NCBI GenBank assembly: GCA_030522375.1
Contig: CP130488.1
Coordinates: 1,408,569 to 1,472,568, forward strand
Reading direction: 5' to 3'
Source: Methanosuratincola petrocarbonis
Lineage (GTDB): Archaea > Thermoproteota > Methanomethylicia > Methanomethylicales > Methanomethylicaceae
DNA: 64,000 nucleotides
In this document: positions 10,817-64,000 of the stretch, piece by piece
How the letters are laid out: the number at the start of each line of letters is the position of its first letter
Numbering within the stretch: position 1 is the stretch's first letter
The notes under the pieces: model-generated
The model's input: only the letters and a program-made list of their open reading frames with translations
Databases searched by the model: none
What the model was told of the DNA's origin: nothing
Position numbers and translations under genes: made by a program

Positions 10817-10912
10817 TGGTAGCGGGGGGTGGATTTGAACCACCGATCTCGGGGTTTCTCAACCGACGGGGCTTATGAGCCCCGCGGGATAACCTGGCTA
10901 CCCCACCCCGCT
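10817..10912 (-). tRNA. Initiator tRNA-Met (anticodon CAU) with an 18-nt anticodon-loop intron
   Basis: Reverse complement reads AGCGGGGTGGGGTAGCCAGGTTATCCCGCGGGGCTCATAA[intron]CCCCGAGATCGGTGGTTCAAATCCACCCCCCGCTACCA. It has an A1:U72 pair, a GGG:CCC anticodon stem and a CUCAUAA loop. The intron lies at canonical 37/38 (about 10856-10873). CCA is encoded. Confidence 0.75.
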
Positions 10913-12818: not shown

Positions 12819-12910
12819 GGGAATGCTCAGCACGATCATTGGCAATTGGATAATGCTTCGTACGTTGAGAATGGAAAAGGCAAAGCATTGGCTGTTTATC
12901 AAGAAACTTC

Positions 12911-13055
12911 ATGGATTGCGAGGGGAGAGCTCTTCGGGAACAAAATCGAGCCGTAGGTGTAGGGAGCGACGCGTTCCCTGGCTGGGCTCGCGGTCCACTG
13001 GGGGAAAGTCCCACGGGAGGCGCGCCGGGCCGGAAGTGGAGGGGGGCGCTGAGGG
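12911..13055 (+). pseudogene. Decayed copy of the C2H2 zinc-finger ORF (junction cassette copy A, gene 1)
   Basis: Nucleotide homology to 58025-58186 (MDCEG... vs VDCGEELFGG...). A frameshift removes the CxxxxC...HxxxxH finger and the stop codon. Confidence 0.4.
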
Positions 13056-13256
13056 TTGAGCTGGAGGGAGGGCGAGGGCGTTCTGGAGCTCCTGCTCCTG
13101 AGGATGCGCGGGTGCGGGTCGAAGGAGGAGTGCCGGGAGGCGGTGGAAGAGGTCCTGACCCTCGTGAAGGAAAGGAAGCTCGAGAGATTAAAAGAGGACC
13201 TATGGATGATGGGAGAGATGTTTTTAAAAACAGTGCTTAATGAATTCTATTCTTAG
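13056..13256 (+). CDS. Small helical protein (junction cassette copy A, gene 2); TTG start
   Basis: LSWREGEGVLELLLLRMRGCGSKEECREAVEEVLTLVKERKLERLKEDL is paralogous to 58186-58347 and to the remnant at 16258-16353. High GC. Confidence 0.45.
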   Translation: MSWREGEGVLELLLLRMRGCGSKEECREAVEEVLTLVKERKLERLKEDLWMMGEMFLKTVLNEFYS

Positions 13257-13304: not shown

Positions 13305-14564
13305 ATGTCCAGTCTCAAGACCTTCTATGAATACGGCAAGGTCAGCAAGGATGATCTTGGACTGGACAGGCAAGACGTGAAGATTCTCGACAGGCTTGCT
13401 GACGAGAAGGCAGGCGTCCTCGATCATTCCAAAGGCGGGTACAGGTTAAAGCAGTACGTCGGGGCCATACCGCTCCACTCCTGCGTGCTTGAAGTTCTGC
13501 CAAAGATCTACAGGGGTGAGGGCGGCACGGTGCAAAACAGGTTGGCGCTATTCTGGCTGCTTTCGTTCGTAGGGGCCTTTGAAATAAAGGAGTCTGACTT
13601 TCTTAAGAAGGGCCTCGAGAAGATGGACTTCTTCGATCTGATGAAGTACGTATTCGCGAGGAACTTGAACGACCAGGTCAAGGACGGGGTCTACAGGGAC
13701 TACGTGCCGGCTGAGGGGAACGAGAGGTACCTCAAGGGCCGCCTAGACTTTGTGAAGGACATTCGCCACAACTACGCCGACAGGTCGAGGTTCTATGTCA
13801 GGTACGACGAGTATACGGAAGACAACCCGATGAACCGCACCCTTGCTGCTGCCGTCAGGGGCATGGTGCCGGGGTCGGGCGTGATGAGCAGGCAGCTGCT
13901 GGCTCGGCTCTCAGCCGCATTCTGCGACGTGGGTTACGAGAACGGGAACGGCCTACTAGTGCAGAGGGTCACGAAGAACCGCCTCAACGAAAGGTACTGG
14001 CCCTCTTATGAGATGGCAAAGATCTTCCTCTCGGGGAAGGTGCCACAGATCTATTCAGGGAAGGACCTGCTGACTTATGGATTCCTCTTCGACATGAACA
14101 GGCTATTCGAGGAGTTCGTGGGGAAATTCTTGAAGAGGCATGCGAACGAGATCTTCGGCGAGGGGGCCGAGGCGCTTGTTCAGCCGGGATACCGTTTCGG
14201 CGATCTCGCGATCAGACCCGACGTGATAATCCGCCTGAAAGACCGGACTATTGTTTTGGACACGAAGTACAAGGGCATCCCAGAAGAGACGGAGCGATCC
14301 AACGCCGACATCTTCCAAGTCTACACGTATTGCATGGCCATGAAAGAAAGAGATCCTTCGAACGAAGCGGTAGGCATCCTTCTCTATCCGAAGCACGTCG
14401 GCGAAGATGTAAACCAAAAATGCGAGACGAAGAGTGTAGGAAAAGTAAGCGAATACCATGCGAAGATATGCCGCCGGTTGATCGACTTGGATGTTGGCTA
14501 TGGCAGGGGCAATCTCGAAAAATTCGTCGAGAGGTTTGAAGAATTGTTTAAAGGAGCGATATGA
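13305..14564 (+). CDS. mcrC: McrC-like subunit of a Type IV (McrBC-like) restriction system
   Basis: 419 aa. C-terminal PD-(D/E)xK core IRPDVIIRLKDRTIVLDTKYKGI matches the McrC DxK nuclease motif. Stop overlaps the downstream McrB start (ATGA). Confidence 0.7.
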   Translation: MSSLKTFYEYGKVSKDDLGLDRQDVKILDRLADEKAGVLDHSKGGYRLKQYVGAIPLHSCVLEVLPKIYRGEGGTVQNRLALFWLLSFVGAFEIKESDFLKKGLEKMDFFDLMKYVFARNLNDQVKDGVYRDYVPAEGNERYLKGRLDFVKDIRHNYADRSRFYVRYDEYTEDNPMNRTLAAAVRGMVPGSGVMSRQLLARLSAAFCDVGYENGNGLLVQRVTKNRLNERYWPSYEMAKIFLSGKVPQIYSGKDLLTYGFLFDMNRLFEEFVGKFLKRHANEIFGEGAEALVQPGYRFGDLAIRPDVIIRLKDRTIVLDTKYKGIPEETERSNADIFQVYTYCMAMKERDPSNEAVGILLYPKHVGEDVNQKCETKSVGKVSEYHAKICRRLIDLDVGYGRGNLEKFVERFEELFKGAI

Positions 14565-16201
14565 AAATGAGCGATGAATCGTTCAATGAAACTATGAATA
14601 AAAAAGAAGATCCAGCAAGTAAATACAACTTTGGCGTAAATTTTTGGAAGGTTTCGCTAGGTCAAGGAGGCGTATACACAGAGGAGTTTATAGACAAAGA
14701 GATCTTTGCAATGGGAAGTTACAGAGTCATTTCTCTTCGTAATTTAAACGACTATGGAACTCCTGAGAAACTAGAAAAAGAAGTGCCCGAACTCTACTTT
14801 GGGGCTGAACACTATGGCGGAAATCAACTTGTCTGCATTTGGAAGAAAATGAAACGTGGTGACGTACTGTTAGCCTATAAAACAGGGACGATAACAGCTT
14901 TTGGAGTGGTTAATAGCGATTACAAATTTACTGATGAGTGGAAGTACTGGTGGTATTATGGAAATAGGTTGGGGTCGCATTATCGCAAAGTTAAATGGAT
15001 CAATCTTCTTCCTAATCCGATCCCTCTCGATGACAATGAAATAAAATTTTTAAAAGAACCTCAAAACACTATAAAGTCCTTCGAGGGACACGAAGACCTG
15101 CTATATAAAATCCTTGACAGGGCACCTTCAAAATTAATAGAAGAATTGCGAGAGCTCGTACAGAAATGCAAGTCAGTTGAACAGGAAGTTGAGCAGGAAG
15201 TGGAACCGGAAGTTGAGCAGGGATCAAAAGTGAAGAACCCTTTGAACGTCATCCTGTACGGCCCGCCGGGGACAGGGAAGACCTACGCGACTGAAGCGGC
15301 CATAATCGCGGTAGAAAAGGGGGATGACGTTCGCGAAGTTTTGCGCGAAGGGAACCTAAAGGATTACATTGAGAACAACGCAGAGAAATTAGAGGCATCC
15401 AAGCAAAGGATAAGGCGCGTAACATTCCACCCCAGCTACTCTTACGAGGACTTTATCGAGGGGATCACGGTCAGGACGGGCAACAACGGCCAGGTTGTTT
15501 ACGAAGTCAAGAAAGGCGCGTTCAGAGAGCTGGCGGAGGAGGCGCTGGATCACCTGGATAACAAGTACTATCTGGTGATCGACGAGATAAACAGGGGGAA
15601 CATTTCCAAGATATTCGGCGAGCTGGTGACGCTGATAGAGGAGGACAAAAGGTGTGGCAACCCGAATGACGGATACTGCGCCACGCTGCCTTACTCAAAA
15701 GAAGAGTTTAGGGTCCCGAAGAACCTCTACCTGATAGGGACGATGAATACATCCGACAGGAGCATTGCGCTGGTGGACCTGGCCCTCAGGAGGCGCTTCG
15801 AGTTCATAGAACTGATGCCGAGACCGGAAATCCTGGGCGGTGTGCAATTCAATGGAATCGACCTTGAGGGGCTGCTGGAAACAATCAATGAAAGGATCAA
15901 AAAGCTAGGTGAGAGAGACAAGCAGATAGGCCACGCCTACTTCATGGATGGTGAAGAACCCATCAGAGACCTCCGCAGACTGAAAGACGTATGGTTCAAC
16001 AAGGTACTGCCACTTCTCAATGAGTACTTCTACGGCCGGTGGGAGGACATTGCCTATGTATTGGGCGGCGAAAAGGGAGGCGAAGCCCCCTTCCTGGAAA
16101 GGTTGACGGAGGAAGACGCAGACCTTTACGACTTTAAGGGCTACATGGAGGACGAGGAGTTCATCGATGAGTTGAATAAGGTAATCCAAAGGCAGGAATA
16201 G
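14561..16201 (+). CDS. mcrB: McrB-like AAA+ GTPase with N-terminal EVE/PUA-like reader domain
   Basis: Walker A ILYGPPGTGKT. McrB signature LVIDEINRGNISKIFGELVTLIE and GTMNTSDRS..DLALRRRFEF. The N-terminal ~200 aa are AT-rich with an EVE-like pattern (NFWKVSLGQG...MKRGDVLLAYKTGTITAFGVVNSDYKF). Linker repeat QEVEQEVEPEVEQ. Confidence 0.85.
   Translation: MKMSDESFNETMNKKEDPASKYNFGVNFWKVSLGQGGVYTEEFIDKEIFAMGSYRVISLRNLNDYGTPEKLEKEVPELYFGAEHYGGNQLVCIWKKMKRGDVLLAYKTGTITAFGVVNSDYKFTDEWKYWWYYGNRLGSHYRKVKWINLLPNPIPLDDNEIKFLKEPQNTIKSFEGHEDLLYKILDRAPSKLIEELRELVQKCKSVEQEVEQEVEPEVEQGSKVKNPLNVILYGPPGTGKTYATEAAIIAVEKGDDVREVLREGNLKDYIENNAEKLEASKQRIRRVTFHPSYSYEDFIEGITVRTGNNGQVVYEVKKGAFRELAEEALDHLDNKYYLVIDEINRGNISKIFGELVTLIEEDKRCGNPNDGYCATLPYSKEEFRVPKNLYLIGTMNTSDRSIALVDLALRRRFEFIELMPRPEILGGVQFNGIDLEGLLETINERIKKLGERDKQIGHAYFMDGEEPIRDLRRLKDVWFNKVLPLLNEYFYGRWEDIAYVLGGEKGGEAPFLERLTEEDADLYDFKGYMEDEEFIDELNKVIQRQE
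15170..15225 (+). repeat. 12-nt tandem repeat encoding the (Q/P)EVE linker in McrB
   Basis: gaacaggaagtt gagcaggaagtg gaaccggaagtt gagcagg. Confidence 0.6.
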
Positions 16202-16257: not shown

Positions 16258-16353
16258 TGGATGCGAGGGCGAGTAAATTATGCTCTCGTCCTGGCTTTGG
16301 TCAAGGAAAGGAAGCTCGAGAGGCTGAAGGAGGAGCTGGGGATGATGGAGTAA
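16258..16353 (+). pseudogene. 3' remnant of the cassette small gene (copy B)
   Basis: ...CEGE* then a frame shift to LVLALVKERKLERLKEELGMME*. The core ggtcaaggaaaggaagctcgagaggctgaaggaggagctgggg is near-identical to the copies at 13151-13215 and 58275-58340. It sits between the convergent mcrB and RM genes. Confidence 0.5.
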
Positions 16354-16355
16354 AC

Positions 16356-19235
16356 TCAGACTCTGGTCCTGGCCCTGCGGAGCTCCTGCAGCTCTTTCAG
16401 CCCCTCTTCGACCTGGCGCCTTTCCTTTTCCGTCAGACCCAGGATGTCGTAGACGGCTTCGTCCAGCTCTTTCTGGGCCTTCTTCTCGGCTTCGATGGCC
16501 TCTTCCAGCTGTTTCCTGGCTTCGATCTCGAGGATGCCGGGTTGATCCTTCTTTTTGGAGCGGAGCGATTCCAAGGTCTCTTCGGCTTTGATGCTTTTGT
16601 TGATGGTGTTTGCAAGTTTCAAAAAGGCATTGCGCAGTTCCTGTTTTTCTGACGCGTTTATGCAATTCATGTCTATTACAGGCATTTTTTTAAGCTCGTA
16701 TACTTCGATTTTCAAAACTCCGCCACCGTAGGAACGACCAAACAGCTCAACTATTAGATGCAAAATCGATGAGTTAAGAAAAGCAGCATACGAAAACCTA
16801 TCCTCATGATTACGGAGTTTGATAAAATGAAGCACGTTAGGCGCATAAATTGTGCCTTCTAATAGATATGCTTTTGATTTTGTATCGATCATATACTGGA
16901 AAATAAGGTCAGGGTCCAACAATCTAGGCAGCACATACCACAACTTCCTCCCCTTTAAGGTCTCTAGTTCAGGCAGCCGCCTCCTTTCCTGCTTCGATCC
17001 CCTGGTGACCTCTACCTCCATCCTCTCGCCGTACTCGATGTACTTCAGGGCATTCGTCCCCTTCAGCTCCTCCTTCGGCTTGTCGCACATGAAGAAGTAT
17101 TCGTCGACTTCCTCCGGCTTTATGACCAAGCCGCGGACCTTCTTGGGCGAAGAGACGCACGGGACAAGGAACTCGGGCTCTATGCCCCACTCCTCCGCTT
17201 TTTCTTTGGAAAGTATGAAGAAGTCGTTGCATCCCGTAGTCGGTCCCCTCACGACTTCAGCAACTTCGCCGAGCGGCCTCATTTTCGGGTGTTTCATCAG
17301 CTTCTTGAATACGGGCGGGGCCCTCAGGTAAACGTTCCACTTCCCCGGCTTGAGCTTGCCCTGCTTCACGACGGTGACCCTTATCCTATCGTCCTCGATG
17401 TCCTCCTCTGACTCAAGGAGCTTCAGCAGCTCCTCATTACTGATCCTCTTCTTTACCCTCACGAACCTAGCCAGGTTCTCTTCCCTCTTCTTCTCGTCCT
17501 TTTCCTTCTGCAAGATCGTGATTGCAGTGTTCACTTCAGCGTCCGGGAAGACAGCCCTGTCGAACTCGATTACGTAGAGGATTTTTGTGTTCCTAAGCAG
17601 GAACTCCTGGAAGGGCTCGCCGTACCCGACCTCCAGCCACTTGTTCGAGGATATGTAACCGAGCATCCCTCCCTGCTTCAGGAAGCGTATCGAGTGGATG
17701 TAGAAGTAGACGTAGATGTCGCTCATCCTGTCCAGGACGATCCCCTTCTTGTTCTTTGCCTGCCCCACGAAGAGCTGGTCCTTGTACTCCTCCTGCACCA
17801 GCTGGAAGATCTTCCTCTTTTCCGAGTCGCCAAGAAGCTCCTGGCGTATGTACGGCGGGTTGGCTACGACGGCGTCGAAAGCCCCGGGGATCTTGATCAG
17901 CATCTGCTTCCCCTCGGTGTCCATGCTCCTGAAGCCCATCAGGGTTTCCTGGCGGGGCTTGAGGTCGAAGAAGTCCTTCACGGCGACGTTTATCTTTTCC
18001 ACCTTCGCCTTCGGGTTCTGTATCGCCAGGTTGATTACAGATAAGTGGGCGGGGAACTGGTTTATGTCCACGCCGTATACCTGCGCTAAAAGCTGCCTGT
18101 GGAAGATCTCGCCCAGGGGCCCCGACATCTCTTTTGGTATCCCGTTGAGCTCCCTCAGGCGCTGGTAGACTTTTACGAGGAACGACCCTGAACCACAAGC
18201 GGGGTCGAGTACCTTGGCGTCCTTCTTAGTGACGGTGAGCCTGACGATCAGGTCCACTATCTCGGGAGGGGTGTAGAACTGCCCGAGGCGCTTCCGCTCT
18301 GTGGGCGGGATGAGCTTCTCGTAGACCCTCCCGAGGAAGTCGCTTTCCATCTTCGAATAGTCGTACTCGTTCAGCGAGTCGATGAGCGTTCTGAACCTTT
18401 CCTTCGCCCTCTCGGTGAATGGGATCTCGTTCATGAGGTCAGGCTGGTATATCGGCTCGTAGTCGATGTTCCTCACTTTCTCGTAATAGTGCATCAAAGA
18501 GTCGTAGACGTCCTCCTCTTCGCCTATCGCTATCCCGGGGAGCTTGTTTGGGTATATCGTCCTGATGACGTCGTAGAAGAGGAGCTTGTTGAGCTGGAGG
18601 TAAGTAGTCTGGTCTGCGATCTTCCTGACGTCCTCCGGATCGTCGGGCCTGAGGCCCTGGTCGAGCATCCACTTTTCGAACCTGGCTCTGAAGCTGTCGT
18701 CCTGGAGCCTCTTCTTGAGCGACGAATGGAACTCTTCCCTGAGGTCCTCGTAAGCCTCGTGGAGGAGCTCGACCAGCGAGTCGTCCACGGCCTTGAGCGA
18801 GACCGGGACTATTCCGAGGACCATCTTAAGCAGCTGCTCGGCCCAGCCATCGTTCCCCTCTACGTCGATGGAAGCAACCTCGCTCTCGTAGGGCTTCTTC
18901 CCCGGCATCAACTTGAACAGGACGAGGCGCTTCGGGTTGCACGTGGCGTAGTAGGGGTAGCCGCCGTTGGAAGCGTAGGAAACGGCTTGAGAGATCACAT
19001 CCGGATCCCTTGGCTCTATGTCCCTTTTGACTCCGCCCACCTTCTTCTTGTACTTCGCCTCTATGACCAGGAGGCGCCTCCCCGACTGCTCGACTACGAG
19101 GTCGGCTTTACCACCGTTGACCTGCTTCTCTGTGTGTAAGTCGAGGTCCAAGCTAAGCTCTTTGGCTGCCTCCTTAAGATTGTAAAAGAGCCTGTTGGTG
19201 ACGAAGTCGGACTCGGACACGAGCTGGGCGGGCAT
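16356..19235 (-). CDS. Type IIG restriction-modification enzyme (N-terminal PD-(D/E)xK nuclease fused to gamma-class N6-adenine MTase and TRD)
   Basis: 959 aa. N-terminal D...LLVIEAKYKKK nuclease motif. MTase motifs in gamma order: FYTPPEIV (X), LDPACGSGSFL (I), VVANPPY (IV). Large C-terminal region consistent with a target-recognition domain. Confidence 0.75.
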   Translation of the reverse strand: MPAQLVSESDFVTNRLFYNLKEAAKELSLDLDLHTEKQVNGGKADLVVEQSGRRLLVIEAKYKKKVGGVKRDIEPRDPDVISQAVSYASNGGYPYYATCNPKRLVLFKLMPGKKPYESEVASIDVEGNDGWAEQLLKMVLGIVPVSLKAVDDSLVELLHEAYEDLREEFHSSLKKRLQDDSFRARFEKWMLDQGLRPDDPEDVRKIADQTTYLQLNKLLFYDVIRTIYPNKLPGIAIGEEEDVYDSLMHYYEKVRNIDYEPIYQPDLMNEIPFTERAKERFRTLIDSLNEYDYSKMESDFLGRVYEKLIPPTERKRLGQFYTPPEIVDLIVRLTVTKKDAKVLDPACGSGSFLVKVYQRLRELNGIPKEMSGPLGEIFHRQLLAQVYGVDINQFPAHLSVINLAIQNPKAKVEKINVAVKDFFDLKPRQETLMGFRSMDTEGKQMLIKIPGAFDAVVANPPYIRQELLGDSEKRKIFQLVQEEYKDQLFVGQAKNKKGIVLDRMSDIYVYFYIHSIRFLKQGGMLGYISSNKWLEVGYGEPFQEFLLRNTKILYVIEFDRAVFPDAEVNTAITILQKEKDEKKREENLARFVRVKKRISNEELLKLLESEEDIEDDRIRVTVVKQGKLKPGKWNVYLRAPPVFKKLMKHPKMRPLGEVAEVVRGPTTGCNDFFILSKEKAEEWGIEPEFLVPCVSSPKKVRGLVIKPEEVDEYFFMCDKPKEELKGTNALKYIEYGERMEVEVTRGSKQERRRLPELETLKGRKLWYVLPRLLDPDLIFQYMIDTKSKAYLLEGTIYAPNVLHFIKLRNHEDRFSYAAFLNSSILHLIVELFGRSYGGGVLKIEVYELKKMPVIDMNCINASEKQELRNAFLKLANTINKSIKAEETLESLRSKKKDQPGILEIEARKQLEEAIEAEKKAQKELDEAVYDILGLTEKERRQVEEGLKELQELRRARTRV

Positions 19236-54997: not shown

Positions 54998-55222
54998 TTA
55001 AAACTTGTGATAATTTGGTATTGATGCGATGGCGGGTCCGGAGGGATTTGAACCCTCGACCATTGACTTAGAAGGCCGCCGAAGGGGGGATTTTTCATCA
55101 GACACGGCAATTTTGATGATGTTTTGGGGGGTTGTACCGTACAGCTTCGAGAGTGCCAAGAGCTTCTCGTAGAGGTCCTCCGGGAGCGTCAAGGATCGGA
55201 AGCCTTTCCGGGGCATAAACAA
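54998..55222 (-). CDS. Ribbon-helix-helix (CopG-like) protein whose C-terminus reads through a tRNA 3' fragment
   Basis: RSLTLPEDLYEKLLALSKLYGTTPQNIIKIAV is an RHH fold. The last ~25 codons overlap the tRNA-like sequence at 55030-55078. Confidence 0.4.
   Translation of the reverse strand: MFMPRKGFRSLTLPEDLYEKLLALSKLYGTTPQNIIKIAVSDEKSPLRRPSKSMVEGSNPSGPAIASIPNYHKF
55030..55078 (-). other. tRNA 3'-half fragment (putative att site remnant)
   Basis: Reverse complement ...GGTCGAGGGTTCAAATCCCTCCGGACCCGCCA is a perfect T-arm, 7-nt acceptor 3' strand, discriminator and CCA. The matching 5' acceptor strand GGGTCCG is absent on either side. Confidence 0.45.
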
Positions 55223-55296: not shown

Positions 55297-55917
55297 TCAT
55301 GCTCTGCTTACATGGCACAACTCAATTATCCCCGACTGCCTGTAATGCCTACCAATCACCTGCAAGATCTGCCAGGAGTTCCTGAGGATGTCCTTCTGGT
55401 CGGTCGTAATGAACAAAAAGAAAATTCCTCGACTCTGGGCCCAGTCGGCGGCGTCGGCTATTATCTGGGCGTCGTTTTTGTTTCCTATGAAGTAAAGGCT
55501 GTCTACTAGTAAAAAGTCCTTAGAGCGGTCTATCAGCGGCTGGGCGGTCTTTTCCAGCGCTTCTTTTATGCTCTGCTTTATTGTGGAAAACAATAAGGTA
55601 AACCCGTAGTGCGCTTCTTCCTGGCTTTTACATTTTATTGATTTAGCCGCTTCTGATAAGAAAGCGCGGCGGTTCGGGTTCCGCTCGTTTTGCAGGGCGC
55701 GCTCTACGCTGCCCTGGCGCAGTATTTCTTTCAGAAACCTATCCATGTACCTGAAGAGCTCATCCAGCTCGCTCTTGACCGTGAGGCTGGTGTGCTTCCG
55801 ATACGCGCCTCCGTCAATGACCCTGCAGCAGTCGCTTTTATGTGGATTCCAATCCGTAGCGTACCCGTAGTAGATGCAGGTGTCTAGGAAGCAATCCGAA
55901 TGCACTTGGCTACCCAC
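55297..55917 (-). CDS. PIN-domain protein (206 aa)
   Basis: FLDTCIYY (first acidic motif), SELDELF, and C-terminal FFLFITTDQKDI (TxD motif). The extended middle region is unassigned. Confidence 0.5.
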   Translation of the reverse strand: MGSQVHSDCFLDTCIYYGYATDWNPHKSDCCRVIDGGAYRKHTSLTVKSELDELFRYMDRFLKEILRQGSVERALQNERNPNRRAFLSEAAKSIKCKSQEEAHYGFTLLFSTIKQSIKEALEKTAQPLIDRSKDFLLVDSLYFIGNKNDAQIIADAADWAQSRGIFFLFITTDQKDILRNSWQILQVIGRHYRQSGIIELCHVSRA

Positions 55918-57073
55918 GAGTCAGCGCCCCTATGAGCAACCCGGCGAGCGCCTCGCCGTCGCCGTACGACTCTTTGTAGAACTCCTTCATCTCTCTCGAC
56001 GATGCGAGTGAGCCGGCTTTAGACAGCATGATCTCGAATCCTTCAATATCCTTAGGGGCAGCCCTGAGCGCCCGCTCCAATTTAGACAGTTGGGCCTCTC
56101 TAATTTGATCGGCCCTCAACCCCTTCACCGTGGCTATAGAGAACAGGAGGGCGACGGGCTTCCAGACGTGCATGCTGTAAAATTCATACACGCGGCCCAG
56201 TTCCAGGAGTAACTTCCTGTCATGCGATGCCTTGATGGAGTACCTCTGGAAGACCTCGACGAATTTCTGGAATTGGTCGTACAGGCCAACGGATGTCATT
56301 TCCTGGCACGCCGGCGGTATCCGGTCGCCGGAGGAGCGCGCGTACTCTTCAAGCCGAGAGTAGAACTCGTCTTTTGCGAGCTCCGCAAGCATCTGGGCCA
56401 GCAGCAGGTTTTGGTTGTGGAGCGGATCGACCCGGGAGGGCACATCGATGAAGCGATCAATCCCAACGGTGCTGCAGTTTACGCCCTCCAAGAGCCTCTT
56501 TGTGGAGTAGCTCAGCTTACTATTGAGCTGGTAGAGTTTTTTGCAGAAGCCAGGGGCCTGATCGTAGAACTTTTCCAGGAAATCTTCAAGCTTTTTGAAG
56601 TATACCTCGGTCACAACCGTCTTGACTTCGCCGTAGTACTGCGCGCTCGGCAGCCCGAACTCCTCCGGGGCGATCCCGCCGACATCATTCTCACACGATT
56701 TAGGCTTCAGGTCCAGGTCGTATGACGCCATCAGCCCCTCGTCGATTTCGCCCCGGTCGTCGACGTCCAACAGGTCGCTGTGGACGTACCCGCCGTAGAG
56801 GTACCAGCTCCTCGTGATAGGGATGTCGAGCCTCTCTGCTATGAGGAAGACCATCTTCTGGAGCTTGACCTTAGATAAATAGGTCGTTCTCGGTCCGCGC
56901 CCCTCGATTTCCCGTCTCAAGTCCCTCAGGATCATTCTGAGGATCCTTTCCTCGTCCTGGGGGCTTAGGAGCGTTGGCAAAAAGGTCACCCGTAAATTGA
57001 GCAAATCATAATTTAACTTTTGTAATTGAAATATTTTTTGTTTTTTAGGTCGCTGGAGCGGCCGCACCCGCAT
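55910..57073 (-). CDS. Hypothetical protein (388 aa); start trimmed to MRVRPLQ
   Basis: The upstream part of the track ORF runs antisense through the neighbouring gene and looks spurious. No family recognised. Confidence 0.4.
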   Translation of the reverse strand: MRVRPLQRPKKQKIFQLQKLNYDLLNLRVTFLPTLLSPQDEERILRMILRDLRREIEGRGPRTTYLSKVKLQKMVFLIAERLDIPITRSWYLYGGYVHSDLLDVDDRGEIDEGLMASYDLDLKPKSCENDVGGIAPEEFGLPSAQYYGEVKTVVTEVYFKKLEDFLEKFYDQAPGFCKKLYQLNSKLSYSTKRLLEGVNCSTVGIDRFIDVPSRVDPLHNQNLLLAQMLAELAKDEFYSRLEEYARSSGDRIPPACQEMTSVGLYDQFQKFVEVFQRYSIKASHDRKLLLELGRVYEFYSMHVWKPVALLFSIATVKGLRADQIREAQLSKLERALRAAPKDIEGFEIMLSKAGSLASSREMKEFYKESYGDGEALAGLLIGALTRG

Positions 57074-57087
57074 ATCGTTTGCATCTT

Positions 57088-57893
57088 TCAGGCCGGTTTT
57101 TCCCTGATCTCGAAGACGCACCTCTTGTTGCCCTTCGCGATGCACTCGGTCTCTTCGACCTGGAAGGGCTTCCCGAAGACCTCCGCGAAGACACCGGCGA
57201 TTATCCCCCTCACCATGGCCCCGTATGGCTGCCCGGTCACTTTTGCACCATTGCACTCGAAGGAGTCGTAGACGGCGATCTTCCCGCCCGAGTCCCCGAG
57301 GTGGATCACCTCGATCCTGCCGAACCCCGCCCACTGGAATGCGGCGGTGCTGATGCGGCGGTAGATCTCTACTGGGTCCTTCAGCCCGACCGCTTCAGCG
57401 GCTGATCTGTGCAGCTTCCCGAACCCTTTGCCTGCCTCGAGCCCCTCGTAGTACAGGAAGGCCTCGCCGCCGGATCCGAACTGCTCCTTTATCCCCCTGA
57501 TGAGCCGCCTGTACCCGGCTGCTCTGAGGATTATCGCCCTGTCGCCCCCTGCCGTCAGAGGATGGGACAGGTTGTCGATGATCAAGCCTTCGGCGACGGG
57601 CTCGATGATCTTCACCTGGCTGGCCATCCCGGTGGACTCGAGCTCCTGAACGAGCTCGTTCATCGGGACGTCGCACTCCGTCACGTCCAGGAAGGTTATG
57701 ACGGGGTACGAATCGGTCGTCGCCGAGGGCGAGGAGGCGAAGTACATCGGCAGCGCCCTGTGCCTGGCCGCCGTCTTGGTCAGGGCGGGGAGGGTATCGG
57801 GGTCGGCCTTGATGATGAACCTCAGCCCCGCTAGCTTCCTGCCCGGCAGCACGAGCATTCTAGACAAGTCGAACTCATAGCTCATAGTGTTTA
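57088..57893 (-). CDS. V4R-domain protein (predicted small-molecule-binding regulator)
   Basis: C-terminal V4R pattern: SFECNGAKVTGQPYGAMVRGIIAGVFAEVFGKPFQVEETECIAKGNKRCVFEI. Start set at MSYEFDL. The track ORF extends spuriously to 58197. Confidence 0.5.
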
Positions 57894-58024
57894 ATTTCCG
57901 TTTTGCAAAAATAACACTTTCGCCCCCGAGTCCTGGCTTCCGCTTTCCGGAAATTCTTAAGCCTCCCGGAGGCGGATCGGCGTGGTGCTGGTGGGTTTCC
58001 GTGATCGGAAAGAGGCCGTCGCTC

Positions 58025-58186
58025 GTGGACTGCGGGGAGGAGCTCTTCGGCGGGAGGGTCAGGTGCAAGTACAGGGGGTGCAGGAAGTGGTGCGCCTCCT
58101 GGCTGGGTCTGGCCGTGCACCTGAGGAAGGGGCACGGGGTGTCGGCGTCGGAGGTGTCCTGGAAGGACCTGGAGGGGGAGCGGTGA
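58025..58186 (+). CDS. Small C2H2 zinc-finger protein (junction cassette copy C, gene 1)
   Basis: (V/M)DCGEELFGGRVRCKYRGCRKWCASWLGLAVHLRKGHGVS... contains C-x4-C-x12-H-x4-H. Its stop overlaps the gene 2 start (TGATG). GC about 65%. A longer ATG-initiated frame begins at 57887. Confidence 0.45.
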   Translation: MDCGEELFGGRVRCKYRGCRKWCASWLGLAVHLRKGHGVSASEVSWKDLEGER

Positions 58187-58347
58187 TGGGCTGGCACGAG
58201 TGCGAGGGCGTCCTTGAGCTGGTCCTTGTGAGGATGAAGAGGTGCGCAACGGCGGAGGAATGCCGCGGGGCCGTGGAGGAGGTCCTTGCGCTGGTCAAGG
58301 AAAGGAAGCTCGAGCGGCTGAGGGAGGAGCTGGGGGTGATTGGATAG
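58186..58347 (+). CDS. Small helical protein (junction cassette copy C, gene 2)
   Basis: MGWHECEGVLELVLVRMKRCATAEECRGAVEEVLALVKERKLERLREELGVIG is paralogous to 13056-13256 and the remnant at 16258-16353. AT-rich foreign DNA begins immediately downstream. Confidence 0.5.
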   Translation: MGWHECEGVLELVLVRMKRCATAEECRGAVEEVLALVKERKLERLREELGVIG

Positions 58348-58778
58348 ATTTTAAACTCTTTCTAAACGCTAATGAGGCAATTCGTGGCCCATATTTCTGT
58401 GATCGGGGAAACAATGATCTGCAACGACGATATCCTAAATGCAAATTATCTGAGAATTCAGCAGGTCTCATCATAACCCTCCACATCATGTGATTAATCA
58501 ATATCTTTTTTTGTCATGGAATCCGAAAAGATCGCCCCCCGATCATCTAATTACAGGAGCGCGCTCATCTTATAAAGGTCTACACATTTCATGGCGATCC
58601 ATGTCTCTATTAAACTTCGAAAAATAAAAGAAAGATTCTCTATATGATGTTTAATTTGTAGTAATGAGTCGCTCAAATAAACTAAAGGTTTCATCACGCA
58701 CTAGAGTTAGATAAAACATATATTTCCAATAGCTTATATGATGCTTACTTTTATATTAAAAATTAGGAGTGTTCTACA

Positions 58779-59375
58779 TTGAATCCAGACGATGCATTTG
58801 AGCAAAATAAAGAATGCATACCTTTTTCTGAGATAATCAAAAAAACTACCGGTCACGAAGTCCAACCACTTTCGAAAGAAGATAACGATGTGATAAATGA
58901 AATATCTGAAGCAGCTAAAAAAATTTTAGAGAGATACAAAAACGAAGTCTTTTCTGATCGACGACCTAATGAAGTTAGCAATCTTTTAGAAAGAGAATTA
59001 AGAGCTTCGCTTAAGGGTGCTAGCATACCAGAAAATAAAGCTGCAGGGTATCCAGACATCCTGATTGTAAGAGGACCTCGCTGTTTCTATATAGAAGTGA
59101 AACTGACCGGTGAAGAACAGACCGATAGTTCTTTAAGGTCTTTCTATTACGAGCCGGCAAAAAATGTTAAAATAAAAAAAGATGCGCGCCATATCCTAAT
59201 TGGATTTGAACACCGCAATAAAAATTTACATAAATTCAAAATTGTTGATCTTTCAAAAATAAATGTTTGTTTGAAAAAAGAATTCAATGCTAATAATAGA
59301 GAACTTTATAAAAAAGAGGCAATCGTGTTAGAATATCCCCCAGAAAAGTCAAATCAGTCGACTTTGGCAGGTTAA
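58779..59375 (+). CDS. Type II restriction endonuclease (PD-(D/E)xK)
   Basis: [20 protein letters not shown] gives a PD...ExK core. About 33% GC. TTG start preceded by AGGAG. Its 3' end overlaps the convergent MTase gene by 27 nt. Confidence 0.55.
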
Positions 59376-60194
59376 CCTCAATTCATTTATCCTCTTTTCT
59401 GCCTCTCTGGCATAGTATTCGTCTATCTCAAAACCTATCCAATCTATTCCCAGTTTTTTACAAGCTATGGCAGTATTACCAATGCCCATAAATGGATCGA
59501 GAACGAGTTGTGTCTTGCTAACCCCATGAAGTTTGATGCACGTCATTGGAACCTCAGGCGGAAATGACGAAGGATGAGGCCTTTGCTTTTCTTTTGATCT
59601 TATGGTATTATATGGAATAAACCAAGTGTTACCACGACATCTTAAATCTTTACTTACCGATTTCCATCTTCCTATGTTCGATTTATCTTGATAAGGCACA
59701 CCTATTGCCAGTCTATCAAGTTCAACATCCCCTTTTTTTGTAAAATGAAAAATGTATTCAAAGCAGTCATTAAGAAAGCGTTTCCCACCAATTGGTTTAA
59801 AATGCCCAACAGCAATATCGCCCTTTATGTTTGGATAATCCCCAACATCTTCTTTCTTTATGGCGATAGACTTGACCCAAATGATAATGTTCTGAAGCGT
59901 GAAGTATTTTCTTAACCTGAAAGCGACTTCCCATGGCACCCAAAGATCGGTAGGCTTGTGCCCAAAGTTAAGGAAGAATGATCCATCTTTGTGCAATACA
60001 CGCCTACACTCTTTTCCTACTTCGTCAATCCAAGCTAAGTAATCTTCCCGAGGTATAGTGTCGTCATATTTATTGTACTTCACCCCAATATTGTATGGAG
60101 GCGAAGTAACGATTACATCGACTTCTTCTGGGTTGAGAAGGGTTTTCATACCTTCCAAGCAATCCATTACATAGATTTTGTTTCTTTCAATCAT
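59349..60194 (-). CDS. Beta-class DNA methyltransferase (N4-cytosine/N6-adenine; SPPY motif)
   Basis: Motif [14 protein letters not shown] lies N-terminal to motif [14 protein letters not shown], i.e. beta-class order. N-terminal [13 protein letters not shown]. Confidence 0.85.
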
Positions 60195-60432
60195 CGTCTA
60201 AACCTCAAGCTCAATCCACTTTTTTCTTGCTCTTTCAATCTTTTAAGCACATACTCCATGGCATGGGTTCCATTAGCGAACCGTTAAGAGCTTATTAAAG
60301 TGCCTATCCATGAAAGTAAATTCTCATCTAAAGAGATGCTTGCCTTCATTTTTCCCATTTCATATACCTCATAATATTGATTATATTGGCTTTTTTATTG
60401 ATCAATTTTGAGTTGTGATAAGACATGGCAAA

Positions 60433-60699
60433 TTAATCCTCCGCCAGAGCTCTTATTTCCTCCAGCTTCTCGGCCACCTTCTTCCCCTTCTCGGTTAGCG
60501 AGATGAGTCTTCTAGGAGGGAAACTTTCTTCACGCTTCTCAGTAATTAGACCGAGACTCAAAAGAATTCTAAGATTATTGTAAACAGTCTGCCGGTTCAT
60601 TTTGCCAAATGAAACAATATCTGACAAAGTCCACTCTTTCTTCGAGTCGCTATTTAGTACTGTCAAAATCTCTTGAGCTGGACTAAGCAGGTTATTCAT
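60433..60699 (-). CDS. Small wHTH regulator upstream of the MTase (possible controller)
   Basis: 88 aa. NRQTVYNNLRILLSLGLITEK is a winged-helix recognition element. Same strand as the MTase. Confidence 0.45.
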   Translation of the reverse strand: MNNLLSPAQEILTVLNSDSKKEWTLSDIVSFGKMNRQTVYNNLRILLSLGLITEKREESFPPRRLISLTEKGKKVAEKLEEIRALAED

Positions 60700-60762
60700 A
60701 TTCTATCAAATAAGACTATATTAAATATGCTATTTTACCATTTTCCAGCTTATTGTCTATCT

Positions 60763-60802
60763 CATAGATGATAGATAAAGTTTATATATCCATCTATCAT
60801 TG
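60763..60802. promoter_or_regulatory. Inverted repeat flanking a TATA-like box (candidate operator/promoter of the RHH operon)
   Basis: CATAGATGATAGATA-aagTTTATATAt-CCATCTATCATTG. The arms ATAGATGATAGAT and ATCTATCAT are complementary. The site lies 36 nt upstream of the 60839 start. Confidence 0.4.
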
Positions 60803-60838
60803 TATATTGATTAGATAAAAGATAAATGGTGAAGAGAC

Positions 60839-61027
60839 ATGGCAAAAGTCGGAAAGCCAGGTTTCGAAGGCCAAGAGGTCTTGGTGAAGATCCCGAAGGA
60901 CCTCCTGGCTGAGGTGGACGAGCTCTGGCCCAGGGCGCAGTGCACCTCCAGGAACGAGTTCATCCGGAGGGCCCTGTGGAGGGCTGTCCGGGACGCCAGG
61001 CGATCGGCGGAGGTGCCCGCGGCTTGA
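60839..61027 (+). CDS. Ribbon-helix-helix (CopG/Arc) protein
   Basis: VLVKIPKDLLAEVDELWPRAQCTSRNEFIRRAL is a beta-alpha-alpha RHH signature. Confidence 0.55.
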   Translation: MAKVGKPGFEGQEVLVKIPKDLLAEVDELWPRAQCTSRNEFIRRALWRAVRDARRSAEVPAA

Positions 61028-61224
61028 CGTTCGTCTACGTCCTGAAGAGCCAGCGCCAGGAGGTCTACGAGCTCCGGAGGAACAGGTCCAGGCACGGGAA
61101 GCCTATCACCCGCGACGAGGCCAGGGAGCTGATCTCGCTGCCTGGGACTGTGAGGCTGATGCGCGTCGCCTGCGGCGACGGCTACCTGAACGAGGTCTAC
61201 GAGATAGGGGGTGGCCCGGCGTGA
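61024..61224 (+). CDS. Small protein translationally coupled to the RHH gene (possible toxin partner); TTG start
   Basis: 66 aa, LTFVYVLKSQRQEVYELRRNRSRHGKPITRDEAREL.... Its start overlaps the RHH stop (TTGA). The family is unclear. Confidence 0.3.
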   Translation: MTFVYVLKSQRQEVYELRRNRSRHGKPITRDEARELISLPGTVRLMRVACGDGYLNEVYEIGGGPA

Positions 61225-61982
61225 CGGAAGAAAGAGGTATGGGTCTGTCGTCCGCCGCGCCGGGAGGTCCCCATGATAATTTTTCACCGGGAGCAAATGA
61301 ACATGACGATTATAAATCTATAATGAATTGCAATACCTCCATTTCCACTCCATCCACTGGAACTCCACGCGGGTATAATATACGCCAAAATGCGTGTTAT
61401 AATTATAATGATTATAATTATAATGGTTATAATTATAACGAGAGCTCCTATAATAATATAGGCTCGCGCACTCCAGTGGCTCCAATGGAAATGGAGGTTC
61501 CGAGGAAGACCGTGGTCGTGAGTGCGGGAATTCCTCATGACCTCTTTGCAAAGCTGAGCGAGCGCGAGAAGATCACCGGTCGGTCCCGTTCCGAAATAAT
61601 CAAGGAAGCCCTTTCCCTCTACCTCAACGGCGACCCGCAAATAACCGACGTCCCGCCGCCAAGGCCGTCCCTGTCGTCCCAGCTGCAAGCAAGCAAAAGC
61701 CGGGAAGAGCTCCAGGACCTTTTGAAGTCGCTCACGAATACCCTGTTAGCCGTCCGCGATGGCATGTGCGAGCCGCTGTGGGTCAAGGAATGGTACCCGC
61801 GCTGGAACAAGCGCCTCATAAGTGCAGTCCAGAAGCTAGAGCCGATGGACGACTTCCAGGAGCGGCTCGTCAGGGTGATGTCATCGATTGCAAAAGAGCT
61901 TAGAAACATCGACCCGAGGTCCGAAGAAGCCTACGGGCGTACGAAGTCGCTCTTGGAACAACTCATGGAGGCGAGACCATGA
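61221..61982 (+). CDS. RHH-domain protein with N/Y-rich low-complexity insert and C-terminal helical domain
   Basis: RHH block RKTVVVSAGIPHDLFAKLSEREKITGRSRSEIIKEALSLYL. The insert NYNDYNYNGYNYNESSYNN is encoded by a (TATAAT)-like tandem repeat. Confidence 0.5.
   Translation: MTEERGMGLSSAAPGGPHDNFSPGANEHDDYKSIMNCNTSISTPSTGTPRGYNIRQNACYNYNDYNYNGYNYNESSYNNIGSRTPVAPMEMEVPRKTVVVSAGIPHDLFAKLSEREKITGRSRSEIIKEALSLYLNGDPQITDVPPPRPSLSSQLQASKSREELQDLLKSLTNTLLAVRDGMCEPLWVKEWYPRWNKRLISAVQKLEPMDDFQERLVRVMSSIAKELRNIDPRSEEAYGRTKSLLEQLMEARP
61385..61440 (+). repeat. Hexanucleotide (TATAAT/TATAAC-like) tandem repeat inside a coding region
   Basis: aattataatgattataattataatggttataattataac encodes NYNDYNYNGYNYN. 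Confidence 0.6.
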
Positions 61983-62104
61983 GCTACAAGTTCGAGTTCT
62001 TCTGCATATTCTGCGGGAAGCCCGAGGACCCGAAGGGCCCCACCTCGTGCCCGGAGTGCCGCGAGAAGCTCAAGGCGAAGCAGGAGGCTGCTCAACCACA
62101 ATGA
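61979..62104 (+). CDS. Zinc-ribbon mini-protein (41 aa)
   Basis: MSYKFEFFCIFCGKPEDPKGPTSCPECREKLKAKQEAAQPQ with CxxC...CxxC. Start and stop overlap the neighbouring genes (ATGA, ATGATGA). Confidence 0.4.
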   Translation: MSYKFEFFCIFCGKPEDPKGPTSCPECREKLKAKQEAAQPQ

Positions 62105-62607
62105 TGACGGTCTTCCAGCAGGCGTACAAGGGCAGGTGGGAGGAGTCTAACCTCTGCGAGGAAATAGCCTTCAGGGTCCTGCGCCTTAACTTCGGCCTCG
62201 GCCCAGAAGACATAATCGTGACCGGCAAAGGCGCCCTCTCGGGCAAGCTCCTGGACGACCCGCTCGAGTCGCCCCCCGACTTCTACGTCCCCAAATTGAA
62301 CCTGTGGTTCGAGGTGACGTCGAGCAACCTGACGAGCGAGGAGTCTCACTGCCGCTGCACGCGATACGGTCTGAATTTCCCCCATATTTTCGTGAGGGAG
62401 GGGAAGCTCGAGGTCCTGAGGATGAACCGGGCGCTTTCCAGGGCGTACTTCGTGAGCGTGAACTGGGCGGACGGGTCCGTCCTCTTCCTCCCGGCTAAGA
62501 AGGCACTTCAGCATGACACTGTGGACTGGTACGAGCGCGGGGGGCGGGAGCGGTACTACGCGATTCCTTGGAGGGAGTGGCTCAAGCCGGGGCAGGTGAG
62601 GGCGTGA
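62101..62607 (+). CDS. Hypothetical protein (168 aa), possible nuclease-like fold
   Basis: Start at MMTV. DFYVPKLNLWFEVTSSN is weakly PD-(D/E)xK-like with Thr in place of Lys. Tentative. Confidence 0.4.
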   Translation: MMTVFQQAYKGRWEESNLCEEIAFRVLRLNFGLGPEDIIVTGKGALSGKLLDDPLESPPDFYVPKLNLWFEVTSSNLTSEESHCRCTRYGLNFPHIFVREGKLEVLRMNRALSRAYFVSVNWADGSVLFLPAKKALQHDTVDWYERGGRERYYAIPWREWLKPGQVRA

Positions 62608-62616
62608 GCGGTTAAC

Positions 62617-62814
62617 ATGGGCGGAAAGAATCAAGCTTCTCTTCGCAAAATCCGCGAGAACAGGAGCACCACCCACATCAGGGTAAAAAAGCAGGTCAAG
62701 TTCGCCCTGGAAAGGTGGATGAGGAAGCACCACGTGAAGACCTACAGCCAGGCGGTCAGGAAGCTTTTGGATGGGGCGGGGGACTATAGGAGTGGAAATA
62801 AATGGGAGCCGTAA
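62617..62814 (+). CDS. Ribbon-helix-helix protein
   Basis: THIRVKKQVKFALERWMRKHHVKTYSQAVRKLL. Confidence 0.45.
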   Translation: MGGKNQASLRKIRENRSTTHIRVKKQVKFALERWMRKHHVKTYSQAVRKLLDGAGDYRSGNKWEP

Positions 62815-62971
62815 ACAAAGTCTCGGTTTCTGTTAAGCTCGACCCGGAAATACGCGACCTCGCCGTCCAGGTCGCGAGGGCGAAGGGCATGGACCTTTCC
62901 GAGCACATCAGGGGGCTGATCGTGGAGGACCTCGACAGGCGGGGGCTCCTGAAAGTGCTGCCCATCAGGTA
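62802..62971 (+). CDS. Ribbon-helix-helix protein (56 aa, not in the ORF track)
   Basis: MGAVNKVSVSVKLDPEIRDLAVQVARAKGMDLSEHIRGLIVEDLDRRGLLKVLPIR. Overlaps the 3' end of the previous gene in another frame. Confidence 0.4.
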
Positions 62972-63043
62972 ATCCCTGCGTATTCTCTGCGGAATCACCA
63001 TCATTTTTTGCCATCACCATGTAAAATTTTTCATGGTGATAAA

Positions 63044-63514
63044 ATGGAAAGGAATAAACTGATGCCCATTATGGCAGCCTTCGCAGCCTTCGCCGTCCTC
63101 TTTTCGATCGCAGCCCCAGCAGCCCTCGCAGCCGCTACCAACGTGACTTTCACGGTAAAGAAGGACACGGTGGCGGCAGCCAATGCGACTATAGCCGTGT
63201 ACGAGATCGAGAGCAAGTACTTCGGCCTGTACCAGAAGGTCGGCGCATATGCCGGCTCCGCGATCACCGACGCCAACGGCACCGCGACAATAAGCGGGCT
63301 CGACAGCGCCAAGACCTACCTTGCGAAGATAACCTACGCCGGCAGGACATATGAACACAAGTTCGCCCCAGCCACCGAGGTCGCCATTTCGCTCACTGAG
63401 ACCAGCTGGATACGGGGCAACATAGTGCCGCTGCTCCTGGGAGGCGCCGCCGTTTTCGTGCTGCTCTTCATCATCGCGCAGGTGAACCCGAGGGCGGTCA
63501 GGTTCGGGAGGTGA
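63044..63514 (+). CDS. Secreted Ig-like/carboxypeptidase-regulatory-like domain protein with C-terminal TM anchor
   Basis: Signal peptide MERNKLMPIMAAFAAFAVLFSIAAPAALA. Beta-rich domain (TFTVKKDTV...TDANGTATISGL). C-terminal hydrophobic helix plus basic tail (RAVRFGR). Confidence 0.5.
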   Translation: MERNKLMPIMAAFAAFAVLFSIAAPAALAAATNVTFTVKKDTVAAANATIAVYEIESKYFGLYQKVGAYAGSAITDANGTATISGLDSAKTYLAKITYAGRTYEHKFAPATEVAISLTETSWIRGNIVPLLLGGAAVFVLLFIIAQVNPRAVRFGR

Positions 63515-63550
63515 GGGGCGCTTTTTAGCCCCTTCTTTGGAGGTGACGCG

Positions 63551-64000
63551 ATGCGCAAAGAAAGGAGCTTTGCGGTAATCGCCCTGGCGCTGTTTTGCTG
63601 CTTCCTGGTCGGGTCAGCCCAGCCCGTCCACGCAGTTATCCCGCTTATTCCTTTTGCGTTAGGGATGTTGGCGGGATCGGTGCTAGTCGGATGGCTTTTG
63701 GGAGTTTTCACAACACCATATCCAGGCATATCCCCGCTAGATTTATTGCAAAATTTCTACTCCGCCAAAGTAAACGAATTTAGAGCATTAACGACAGGGC
63801 TAAACAACACAGCCGAAGCCTTGGAAGGTGTGAGCTATTACCTTTCAAGGAAGGCCACAACCACGGCGCAAATGTATATCAACGAAAGCACTTTTCCAGC
63901 CAACAAAGTATTGAACGTAAGCGGAATTTTGACCGAGGCATCAAACGAATATTTCTCATATATTCAGTCCTATCAATACATATTTGACGACATAAGAAGA
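63551..64000 (+). CDS. Secreted/membrane protein, 3' end beyond window
   Basis: N-terminal signal/TM segments. The ORF continues past position 64000. Confidence 0.4.
   Translation, partial: MRKERSFAVIALALFCCFLVGSAQPVHAVIPLIPFALGMLAGSVLVGWLLGVFTTPYPGISPLDLLQNFYSAKVNEFRALTTGLNNTAEALEGVSYYLSRKATTTAQMYINESTFPANKVLNVSGILTEASNEYFSYIQSYQYIFDDIRR

Follow-up and report, generated by a model that had tools for sequence, protein, structure and literature searches.

A Type II restriction–modification gene pair of the MjaV family as probable acquired cargo behind a repeated small gene in Methanosuratincola petrocarbonis

Genes and composition of the AT-rich stretch

Methanosuratincola petrocarbonis LWZ-6 is among the first cultured methanogens outside the Euryarchaeota. 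In a 64,000-nt segment of the M. petrocarbonis genome, most likely from this strain (contig CP130488.1; this whole segment is referred to as the window), an AT-rich stretch holds two convergent genes, one for a predicted restriction endonuclease (REase; 198 aa, 58779–59375, + strand) and one for a predicted DNA methyltransferase (MTase; 281 aa, 59349–60194, − strand), together with an interrupted small open reading frame (ORF) upstream of the MTase gene. The DNA from 58348 to ∼60450 is very likely a Type II restriction–modification (RM) cargo, self-contained and acquired by horizontal transfer, made up of an MjaV-family REase, a β-class MTase, and the remnant of the small ORF.

The REase ORF has a TTG codon as its only possible start. 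The initial annotation had read its 198-aa product as an endonuclease from a PD…ExK pattern, and both the pattern and the assignment were borne out: the translation contains GYPD93…E106-V-K108, and the PADLOC model REase_II PDLC03511 matched residues 9–185 with an E value of 2.5e-22, the opposite of the HMM outcome that would have refuted the assignment. A precomputed Pfam annotation places this exact protein and all of its relatives in PF27324 (MjaV), and its full-length alignment with a Methanocaldococcus sp. 10A member of this family shows 35% identity (E 7e-32). In local scans, Pfam and NCBIfam returned only noise (a YezG-like match at E 0.013 and TFSII at E 0.003), comparison of the sequence with PDB chains gave nothing significant, and tblastn yielded no hit in 72,556 plasmids or in 50,697 phage records. 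A profile of the seven closest relatives retrieved 499 cluster representatives of the family, and the E value was 1e-10 or lower for 328.

Among 50 diverse members of this family, G90, Y91, P92, Y104, K108, R120, F122, H138, K166, and E168 are invariant, and R62, N64, E71, E106, P126, K131, F143, N173, and Y177 are nearly so. E71 and E106 are each kept in at least 90% of these members and are present in the M. petrocarbonis protein; D93 is the consensus residue of the family, with N at this position in three close relatives. The putative catalytic residues are E71, D93, E106, and K108. The protein is full length relative to its relatives and retains every invariant and nearly invariant residue.

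An AlphaFold2 model built from the family alignment had a mean predicted local distance difference test score of 90.2 and a predicted template modeling score of 0.86. When this model was compared with PDB structures by Foldseek, the top match was R.SwaI (E 2.8e-4, TM-score 0.55), and SfiI, HincII, EcoRV (TM-score 0.45), and the archaeal resolvase Hjc were among the further matches. The PD…ExK residues lie on a central sheet of the model, a second likeness to the EcoRV/SwaI/HincII/SfiI class that provided its best structural matches; the protein differs from these enzymes in sharing only 11–18% sequence identity with them, and the TM-scores are modest. By family assignment and predicted structure, the 198-aa protein is a PD-(D/E)xK REase of the MjaV family with predicted restriction activity.

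The 281-aa protein matches PF01555 (N6_N4_Mtase) end to end (E 1.3e-45) and the PADLOC model MTase_II PDLC03295 with an E value of 4.9e-131. Motif IV (SPPY, residues 31–34) precedes motif I (DPFMGIG, residues 244–250, within DPFMGIGNT at 244–252), and a target-recognition region lies between them, which makes this a β-class enzyme, in agreement with the class and motif order proposed in the initial annotation. Its relatives in the PDB are all of the β class and include the N4-cytosine enzymes 8s9m/8s9n and PvuII in addition to MboIIA, CcrM, DpnA, and RsrI; the alignment with MboIIA (1g60) runs end to end over residues 1–274. The presence of SPPY rather than DPPY, together with the N4-cytosine relatives, favors N4-methylcytosine (m4C) as the predicted product, although the adenine MTases MboIIA, CcrM, and DpnA score like the N4-cytosine enzymes and relatives of this protein are labeled “adenine-specific” in their sources. 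At least 7,994 proteins belong to the MTase family at E ≤ 1e-40, and MTases 70–84% identical to the one studied here occur in Hodarchaeota, Nitrososphaerota, Sulfolobales, Nitrosocaldus, and Pyrococcus. This family is much larger and better conserved than that of the REase.

The REase and MTase genes share exactly 27 nt at their 3′ ends (59349–59375), so the adjacent, convergent Type II RM gene pair stands as first proposed. Each gene has its own Shine–Dalgarno (SD)-like sequence, GAGGT 7 nt before the ATG codon of the MTase gene and AGGAG 9 nt before the TTG codon of the REase gene. The latter lies in a non-coding leader of 35% GC (58348–58778), which also carries a run of seven T residues (58506–58512) and contains no ORF of more than 48 aa; roles of this leader as promoter and terminator are inferred. 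No DNA similarity was found between the leader and other RM loci, and no Rfam family matched the leader or any other part of the region from 57.8 to 61.3 kb. The weak start codon of the REase gene and the face-to-face transcription of the pair could hold expression of the nuclease below that of the methylase.

Directly upstream of the MTase gene lies a small ORF of 55 codons (60191–60358, − strand), overlooked in the initial annotation, that is broken by an in-frame TAA codon (60284–60286) and whose TGA codon overlaps the ATG codon of the MTase gene (ATGA). The same in-frame TAA is present in three independent assemblies (L001–L003). In three hot-spring metagenome contigs that carry a related pair (L019–L021), an intact ORF of 58 aa occupies the same place with the same 4-nt ATGA overlap; modules of this family can thus include, as an optional third component, a small upstream gene that is translationally coupled to the MTase gene. 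The small ORF and its 58-aa counterpart have no Pfam hit and no BLAST similarity to each other, and a ribbon–helix–helix (RHH) reading of both, made by sequence pattern, was dropped for this reason. The small ORF is probably a decayed small upstream gene of the RM module. It is preceded by an AT-rich spacer with an SD-like sequence (60359–60450), which may act as a promoter.

The composition of this DNA differs sharply from that of its surroundings. In 300-nt intervals, the GC fraction falls from 0.66 at 58050–58349 to 0.31–0.41 over 58350–60899 and then returns to 0.52–0.67. The low GC content and foreign composition noted previously therefore hold, whereas the figures given for them (∼33% against ∼60%) were slightly exaggerated: positions 58351–60802 have a GC content of 36.5%, compared with 57.1% on the left (55300–58350), 56.2% on the right (60836–64000), and 50.3% for the window as a whole. 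The RM stretch is also the 2.1-kb stretch of lowest GC content in the window (36.2%, with a mean of 50.1% and a standard deviation of 3.8), and low GC extends rightward to ∼60835. By gene, GC content is 34.3% for the REase, 39.1% for the MTase, and 42.3% for a winged helix–turn–helix (wHTH) gene further right; at third codon positions, the REase and MTase genes have values of 0.26 and 0.37, respectively, and neighboring genes 0.5–0.76. For comparison, the complete genome of type strain LWZ-6 is 1.54 Mbp with 54.4% GC (PMC12244365).

Relatives of the gene pair and its predicted specificity

Loci that carry related pairs were collected by searching genome contigs with the 7-sequence REase alignment, as the 50-sequence alignment was too divergent. 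Convergent, overlapping pairs were found in a Sulfolobales metagenome-assembled genome (MAG; L006), Candidatus Methanodesulfokora washburnensis (L007), an Anaerolineae MAG (L008), a Methanococci MAG (L011), and the hot-spring contigs L019–L021, with overlaps of 4–17 nt at the 3′ ends. Relative to the M. petrocarbonis pair, the REases at these loci are 36–57% identical and the MTases 64–82% identical; identity to MTases paired with MjaV-family REases is 64–81%. More distant REases (L009 and L010) are paired with a different, co-directional MTase of 400 aa.

In every host, the RM pair has a GC content of 35–40%. The two RM genes in the Anaerolineae MAG have GC fractions of 0.37 and 0.39 in surroundings of 0.52–0.58, the module in L019 has a fraction of 0.371 in surroundings of 0.45–0.47, and the only host whose composition matches that of the module is the Methanococci MAG, at 32% GC. 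Judged by this distribution, the REase/MTase pair is a mobile unit that recurs in five or more unrelated genomes, those of archaea and a bacterium. In M. petrocarbonis, the REase and MTase are identical across several independent assemblies, and the REase occurs on 5 contigs, versus 24–26 for housekeeping proteins of the same species; the acquisition of the pair was probably recent.

The MTase family spreads independently of the nuclease. Orphan MTases 82–84% identical to that of M. petrocarbonis were seen at three loci (L016–L018) beside a DUF5658 gene and a convergent serine recombinase (Resolvase) gene, and another orphan (L022) lies among glycosyltransferase genes in a Hodarchaeota MAG.

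The likely target of the RM system is GTAC, with m4C methylation, a prediction drawn from homology and site counts. MjaV (MJ1500), which is an experimentally active enzyme (PMC2615612), is the prototype of the REase family, and M.MjaV makes m4C in GTAC (PMC11033074). In addition, the alignment of the M. petrocarbonis MTase with one from cyanophage Syn19 shows 46% identity across 268 residues (E 2e-81), its central region included, and the Syn19 MTase gene overlaps one that its depositors labeled “R.RsaI endonuclease”. Finally, GTAC is the most depleted 4-bp palindrome when six carrier loci are pooled (69 observed versus 110.7 expected), and this depletion is strongest in the Methanococci MAG (2 versus 15.9 expected) and the Anaerolineae MAG (5 versus 14).

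The M. petrocarbonis system shares with the MjaV system of Methanocaldococcus jannaschii the REase family PF27324 and a β-class MTase, which here has the SPPY motif typical of N4-cytosine methylases and is 64% identical to the Methanococci MAG copy that is paired with the same REase family. It differs in that the host is a methanogen of the Thermoproteota rather than the Methanococcales, the REase has 198 aa versus ∼230, lacks two insertions, and starts at TTG, the MTase gene is preceded by a small, interrupted ORF, and the module is compositionally foreign to its host. The likeness to the RsaI-type GTAC system of Syn19 lies in the MTase and in adjacent, overlapping REase and MTase genes; the partner REase is unrelated (E 0.04), and the Syn19 genes are co-directional, not convergent. 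By homology to these systems, the methylase would protect GTAC sites of the host, and the endonuclease would cut unmethylated incoming DNA at the same site, probably as a homodimer built around an EcoRV/SwaI-like core.

Within the window, GTAC occurs at expectation (139 observed versus 137 expected), which fits a recent arrival of the RM system. The most under-represented 4-bp palindrome of the window is GGCC (154 versus 299.5 expected, a ratio of 0.51), suggesting an older GGCC-specific system elsewhere in the genome.

Junctions of the cargo and the surrounding backbone

Two small backbone genes lie immediately to the left of the cargo. A C2H2-like zinc-finger ORF (57887–58186, + strand) shares the last base of its TGA codon with the ATG codon of a 53-aa ORF (58186–58347, + strand), and neither product has a Pfam hit. 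The zinc-finger ORF is 59% identical (E 8e-21) to an ORF upstream of the same cassette in JGI contig L042. Direct repeats of the 53-aa ORF region are present at 13057–13222 and 16288–16346, so the pair at 57887–58347 is one copy (copy C) of a repeated cassette: a paralogous zinc-finger/small-ORF pair occupies 12823–13256 (copy A) and is also found in L028, one of six sister-strain loci (L027–L032), and its last 67 nt recur at 16288–16354 (remnant copy B). The core sequence of the cassette is GTSAAGGAAAGGAAGCTCGAG. When these copies were compared with those in L028 and L042, the homology among all of them stopped at the stop codon of the 53-aa ORF. Repeats and alignment alike thus place the left boundary of the RM stretch at the end of the cassette, as had been proposed.

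Each copy of the cassette adjoins defense genes. Copy A is followed by genes for McrC (13305–14564; PF10117, E 2.8e-59) and McrB (14561–16201; AAA_5), remnant copy B abuts the stop codon of a gene for a 959-aa Eco57I/MmeI-type Type IIG enzyme (16356–19235, − strand), and copy C is followed by the MjaV-type RM genes. In the sister strains, the DNA on both sides is 99.9% identical to the window, and four other genes, including one for an HSDR_N/SeqA_C nuclease, replace McrBC. Toward the junction, divergence from these strains rises to ∼15% within the final 400 nt, which suggests that backbone genes are exchanged together with cargo. When L001, from a second strain, was compared with the window (57915–62425), there were no differences over 58142–61230, a block that holds the cassette core, the RM genes, and the wHTH and RHH genes to their right, in contrast with 25 differences in the 214 nt from 57928 to 58141, 26 in the 49 nt from 61231 to 61279, and unrelated DNA left of 57915. 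This pattern points to a recent recombinational transfer of the block between strains.

The right junction was placed by homology in a contig that lacks the RM genes. To the right of the small ORF and its spacer lie a gene for an 88-aa wHTH protein (60433–60699, − strand; HxlR/PadR/HTH_45-like, with an HxlR score of 25.2 bits against a cut-off of 20.8), an intergenic region of 24.5% GC (60700–60838), and a divergent gene for a 62-aa RHH protein (60839–61027, + strand; RHH_1, E 7.3e-6). In Logan contig DRR358089 (L015), which belongs to another organism and an unrelated sequencing run, positions 1–523 are 89% identical by blastn to positions 60967–60450 of the window; this shared block contains the RHH gene, the intergenic region, and the wHTH gene, and beyond the last codons of the wHTH gene the contig continues with unrelated genes and no RM. 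The wHTH gene is absent from the RM relatives in L006–L008, L011, and L019–L021, and in L042 a wHTH gene 49% identical to that of M. petrocarbonis (E 7e-18) lies immediately upstream of the zinc-finger and 53-aa ORF homologs, all on one strand. From these alignments, the wHTH gene is part of the backbone that hosts the RM genes and not of the RM module, to which it had been assigned. This places the right end of the cargo near 60450, within the final codons of the wHTH gene.

A palindrome at 60768–60800 had been taken as the right border, a position that the homology in L015 contradicts. This feature is a 9-bp perfect inverted repeat (60768–60776 and 60792–60800) that flanks TTTATATA and surrounds a TATA-like box, and it is not by itself beyond chance, because an inverted repeat of this size arose in 15% of shuffled sequences. 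A GATAGA/TCTATC hexamer occurs four times in the same spacer, which none of 2000 shuffles reached. The left half of the spacer is conserved in L015, and the right arm of the inverted repeat is not. The simplest reading of the region of repeats is an operator/promoter that serves the two divergent backbone genes, wHTH and RHH.

Several further features of the surrounding DNA were recorded. In L015, the RHH/wHTH block lies only ∼4 kb from a homolog of the Type IIG gene (77% identical; window 17917–19235), with a gene for a radical-SAM SPL-like protein between the two loci, which are 40 kb apart in M. petrocarbonis. The intervening ∼39 kb (21–60 kb) was considered as one large insert, and this was rejected because it contains housekeeping DNA (HypF, SHMT, PolD, and HMG-CoA synthase) that is collinear with the sister strains at 99.9%. 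A 253-aa RHH-domain protein encoded to the right of the RM genes (61221–61982) contains a low-complexity Asn/Tyr repeat (NYNDYNYNGYNYNESSYNN), encoded at ∼61350–61450 in AT-rich DNA of 44% GC, and the adjoining 61231–61279 is a hypervariable patch between strains. An ORF at 61888–62607 carries a Viral/Archaeal nuclease domain (PF12187, E 4.7e-6) and, with several RHH genes on this side, is consistent with a virus- or plasmid-derived backbone.

The region from 21.5 to 55 kb is core genome, and every metagenome contig that comes from the core side ends at 55054–55060. Because of these stops, an integrated element that extends past the end of the window may make up the ∼57% GC region to the right of 55060, RM genes included. 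Only the 3′ portion of a tRNA, with T-arm, acceptor strand, and CCA, is present at 55030–55061 (− strand; Rfam tRNA score of 23.4 bits, threshold 29) and possibly represents an att remnant at the left end of such an element; no intact copy of it occurs in the window. A corresponding tRNA fragment at the left end of L001 was sought with ARAGORN and Rfam, which found none. Elsewhere in the window, the gene for TiaS (tRNA-Ile2 agmatidine synthase, 9204–10535) is separated by ∼280 nt from a tRNA of 96 nt (10817–10912) whose anticodon is CAU, which ARAGORN cannot assign, and which probably contains an intron; tiaS may adjoin the gene for its own substrate tRNA.

Alternative readings and meaning for the host

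Several findings weigh against an acquired, intact RM cargo that is specific for GTAC. An empty site, with cassette copy C joined directly to the wHTH gene, was not found: exact-protein look-ups with RHH62, wHTH, the 121-aa cassette ORF, cation-efflux, and PCC proteins returned only contigs that carry the RM genes or that stop at 55054–55060, the cassette and wHTH proteins had no match when viral contigs were scanned, and a single metagenome scan with the cassette core returned one 1.8-kb contig that ends 113 nt past the cassette. For this reason, insertion is deduced from composition and from the paralogous and orthologous junctions. The assignment of the REase to PF27324 comes from a precomputed annotation. 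The carrier loci in which GTAC is depleted are short and hold other RM systems too, there is no depletion of GTAC in L007, CGCG and GCGC are depleted almost as much as GTAC, and “R.RsaI” is a depositor annotation only. The specificity of the REase could differ from that of MjaV because the protein and the Methanocaldococcus clade to which MjaV belongs share only 35% identity, and the system could be partly decayed because the small ORF is broken and the REase gene starts at TTG.

These findings bear on three other explanations of the locus. An active Type II RM system with a recognition sequence other than GTAC is possible though doubtful. Specificities can change at the distance that separates this REase from the MjaV clade, the window avoids GGCC and not GTAC, and the carrier locus L007 shows no depletion of GTAC; against this, the MTase, its central target-recognition region included, shares 64% identity with the Methanococci copy and 46% with the cyanophage copy annotated next to R.RsaI, no palindrome is more depleted than GTAC in the pooled carriers, and avoidance of GGCC is explained more simply by another, older system of the host. 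It is unlikely that the system is in decay, with the methylase effectively an orphan and the endonuclease inactive or barely expressed. In favor of decay are the in-frame TAA in the ORF coupled to the MTase gene, the TTG start, the existence of 82–84% identical MTases as orphans, and the larger, better conserved MTase family; the REase, however, is full length, keeps all conserved residues of its family, and gives a confident model, and both genes are identical in several independent assemblies.

A three-gene, controller-regulated RM system, in which the wHTH protein acts as a C-protein-like regulator and the palindrome at 60768–60800 serves as operator and right border, is quite improbable. 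The wHTH gene does lie upstream of the MTase gene and in the same orientation, on the strand opposite the REase gene; it is AT-rich (42% GC), low GC reaches ∼60835, and the identity of L001 with the window over 58142–61230 indicates that the RM, wHTH, and RHH genes currently travel together in these strains. Yet the same RHH–spacer–wHTH block exists in L015 without RM, the RM relatives have no wHTH gene, and the homolog in L042 belongs to a zinc-finger/cassette operon. Moreover, the protein is HxlR/PadR-like and not of the Xre type, the 238-nt gap between its gene and that of the MTase holds another ORF with its own SD-like sequence, and the inverted repeat is neither beyond chance nor conserved in its right arm. 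Systems with C proteins (PvuII, BamHI, and Esp1396I) resemble this locus in that a small gene for a DNA-binding protein lies close by and the translation of a small ORF is coupled to that of an enzyme gene; here, however, the wHTH gene does not accompany the module in its relatives and is found apart from RM genes, and the coupled ORF precedes the MTase rather than the REase gene, is interrupted, and has no helix–turn–helix or RHH Pfam hit. No dedicated controller protein for the pair is evident at the locus.

A horizontally acquired Type II RM cargo that arrived as a unit remains the preferred reading, and the RM system is in itself an ordinary one of a known type. The feature most worth attention is the repeated small-gene junction. 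The module sits exactly at the stop codon of a repeated backbone gene, where other defense cargo is found elsewhere in the window and in sister strains. This arrangement resembles the hotspots between conserved genes of P2/P4-like prophages and defense islands, in which a small gene pair is followed by variable defense cargo; it differs in its archaeal setting and in a junction that is the stop codon of a 53-aa ORF, the last ∼60 nt of which can be duplicated. Four cargoes (McrBC, the Type IIG RM enzyme, the MjaV-type RM genes, and the HSDR_N/SeqA_C nuclease) abut the same ∼60-nt core, and beyond the McrBC insert comes the 67-nt duplicated core. We tentatively suggest, as a rather speculative idea, that the stop-codon region of the zinc-finger/53-aa pair might be a dedicated recombination site of an undescribed archaeal system through which Methanosuratincola and its mobile elements would trade complete defense modules. 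Under such a system, the second conserved border would consist of the wHTH and RHH genes, and the latest arrival would be the MjaV-type RM genes. An integron-like cassette array was considered and rejected, as no integrase was found and the repeat is the coding 3′ end of the 53-aa ORF rather than an attC-like hairpin; among the subset of ORFs in 9–21 kb and 55–64 kb that were tested, there were no Pfam hits to integrases or recombinases.

For M. petrocarbonis LWZ-6, restriction barriers matter for genetics, and the window encodes three of them (the MjaV-type system, McrBC, and the Type IIG enzyme). The predicted m4C modification of GTAC is a testable methylome motif, and in practice GTAC sites in transforming DNA could be pre-methylated or avoided. 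Beyond the RM system itself, the more interesting point is that this lineage appears to exchange its defense cargo at one defined kind of site, directly behind a very small conserved gene.

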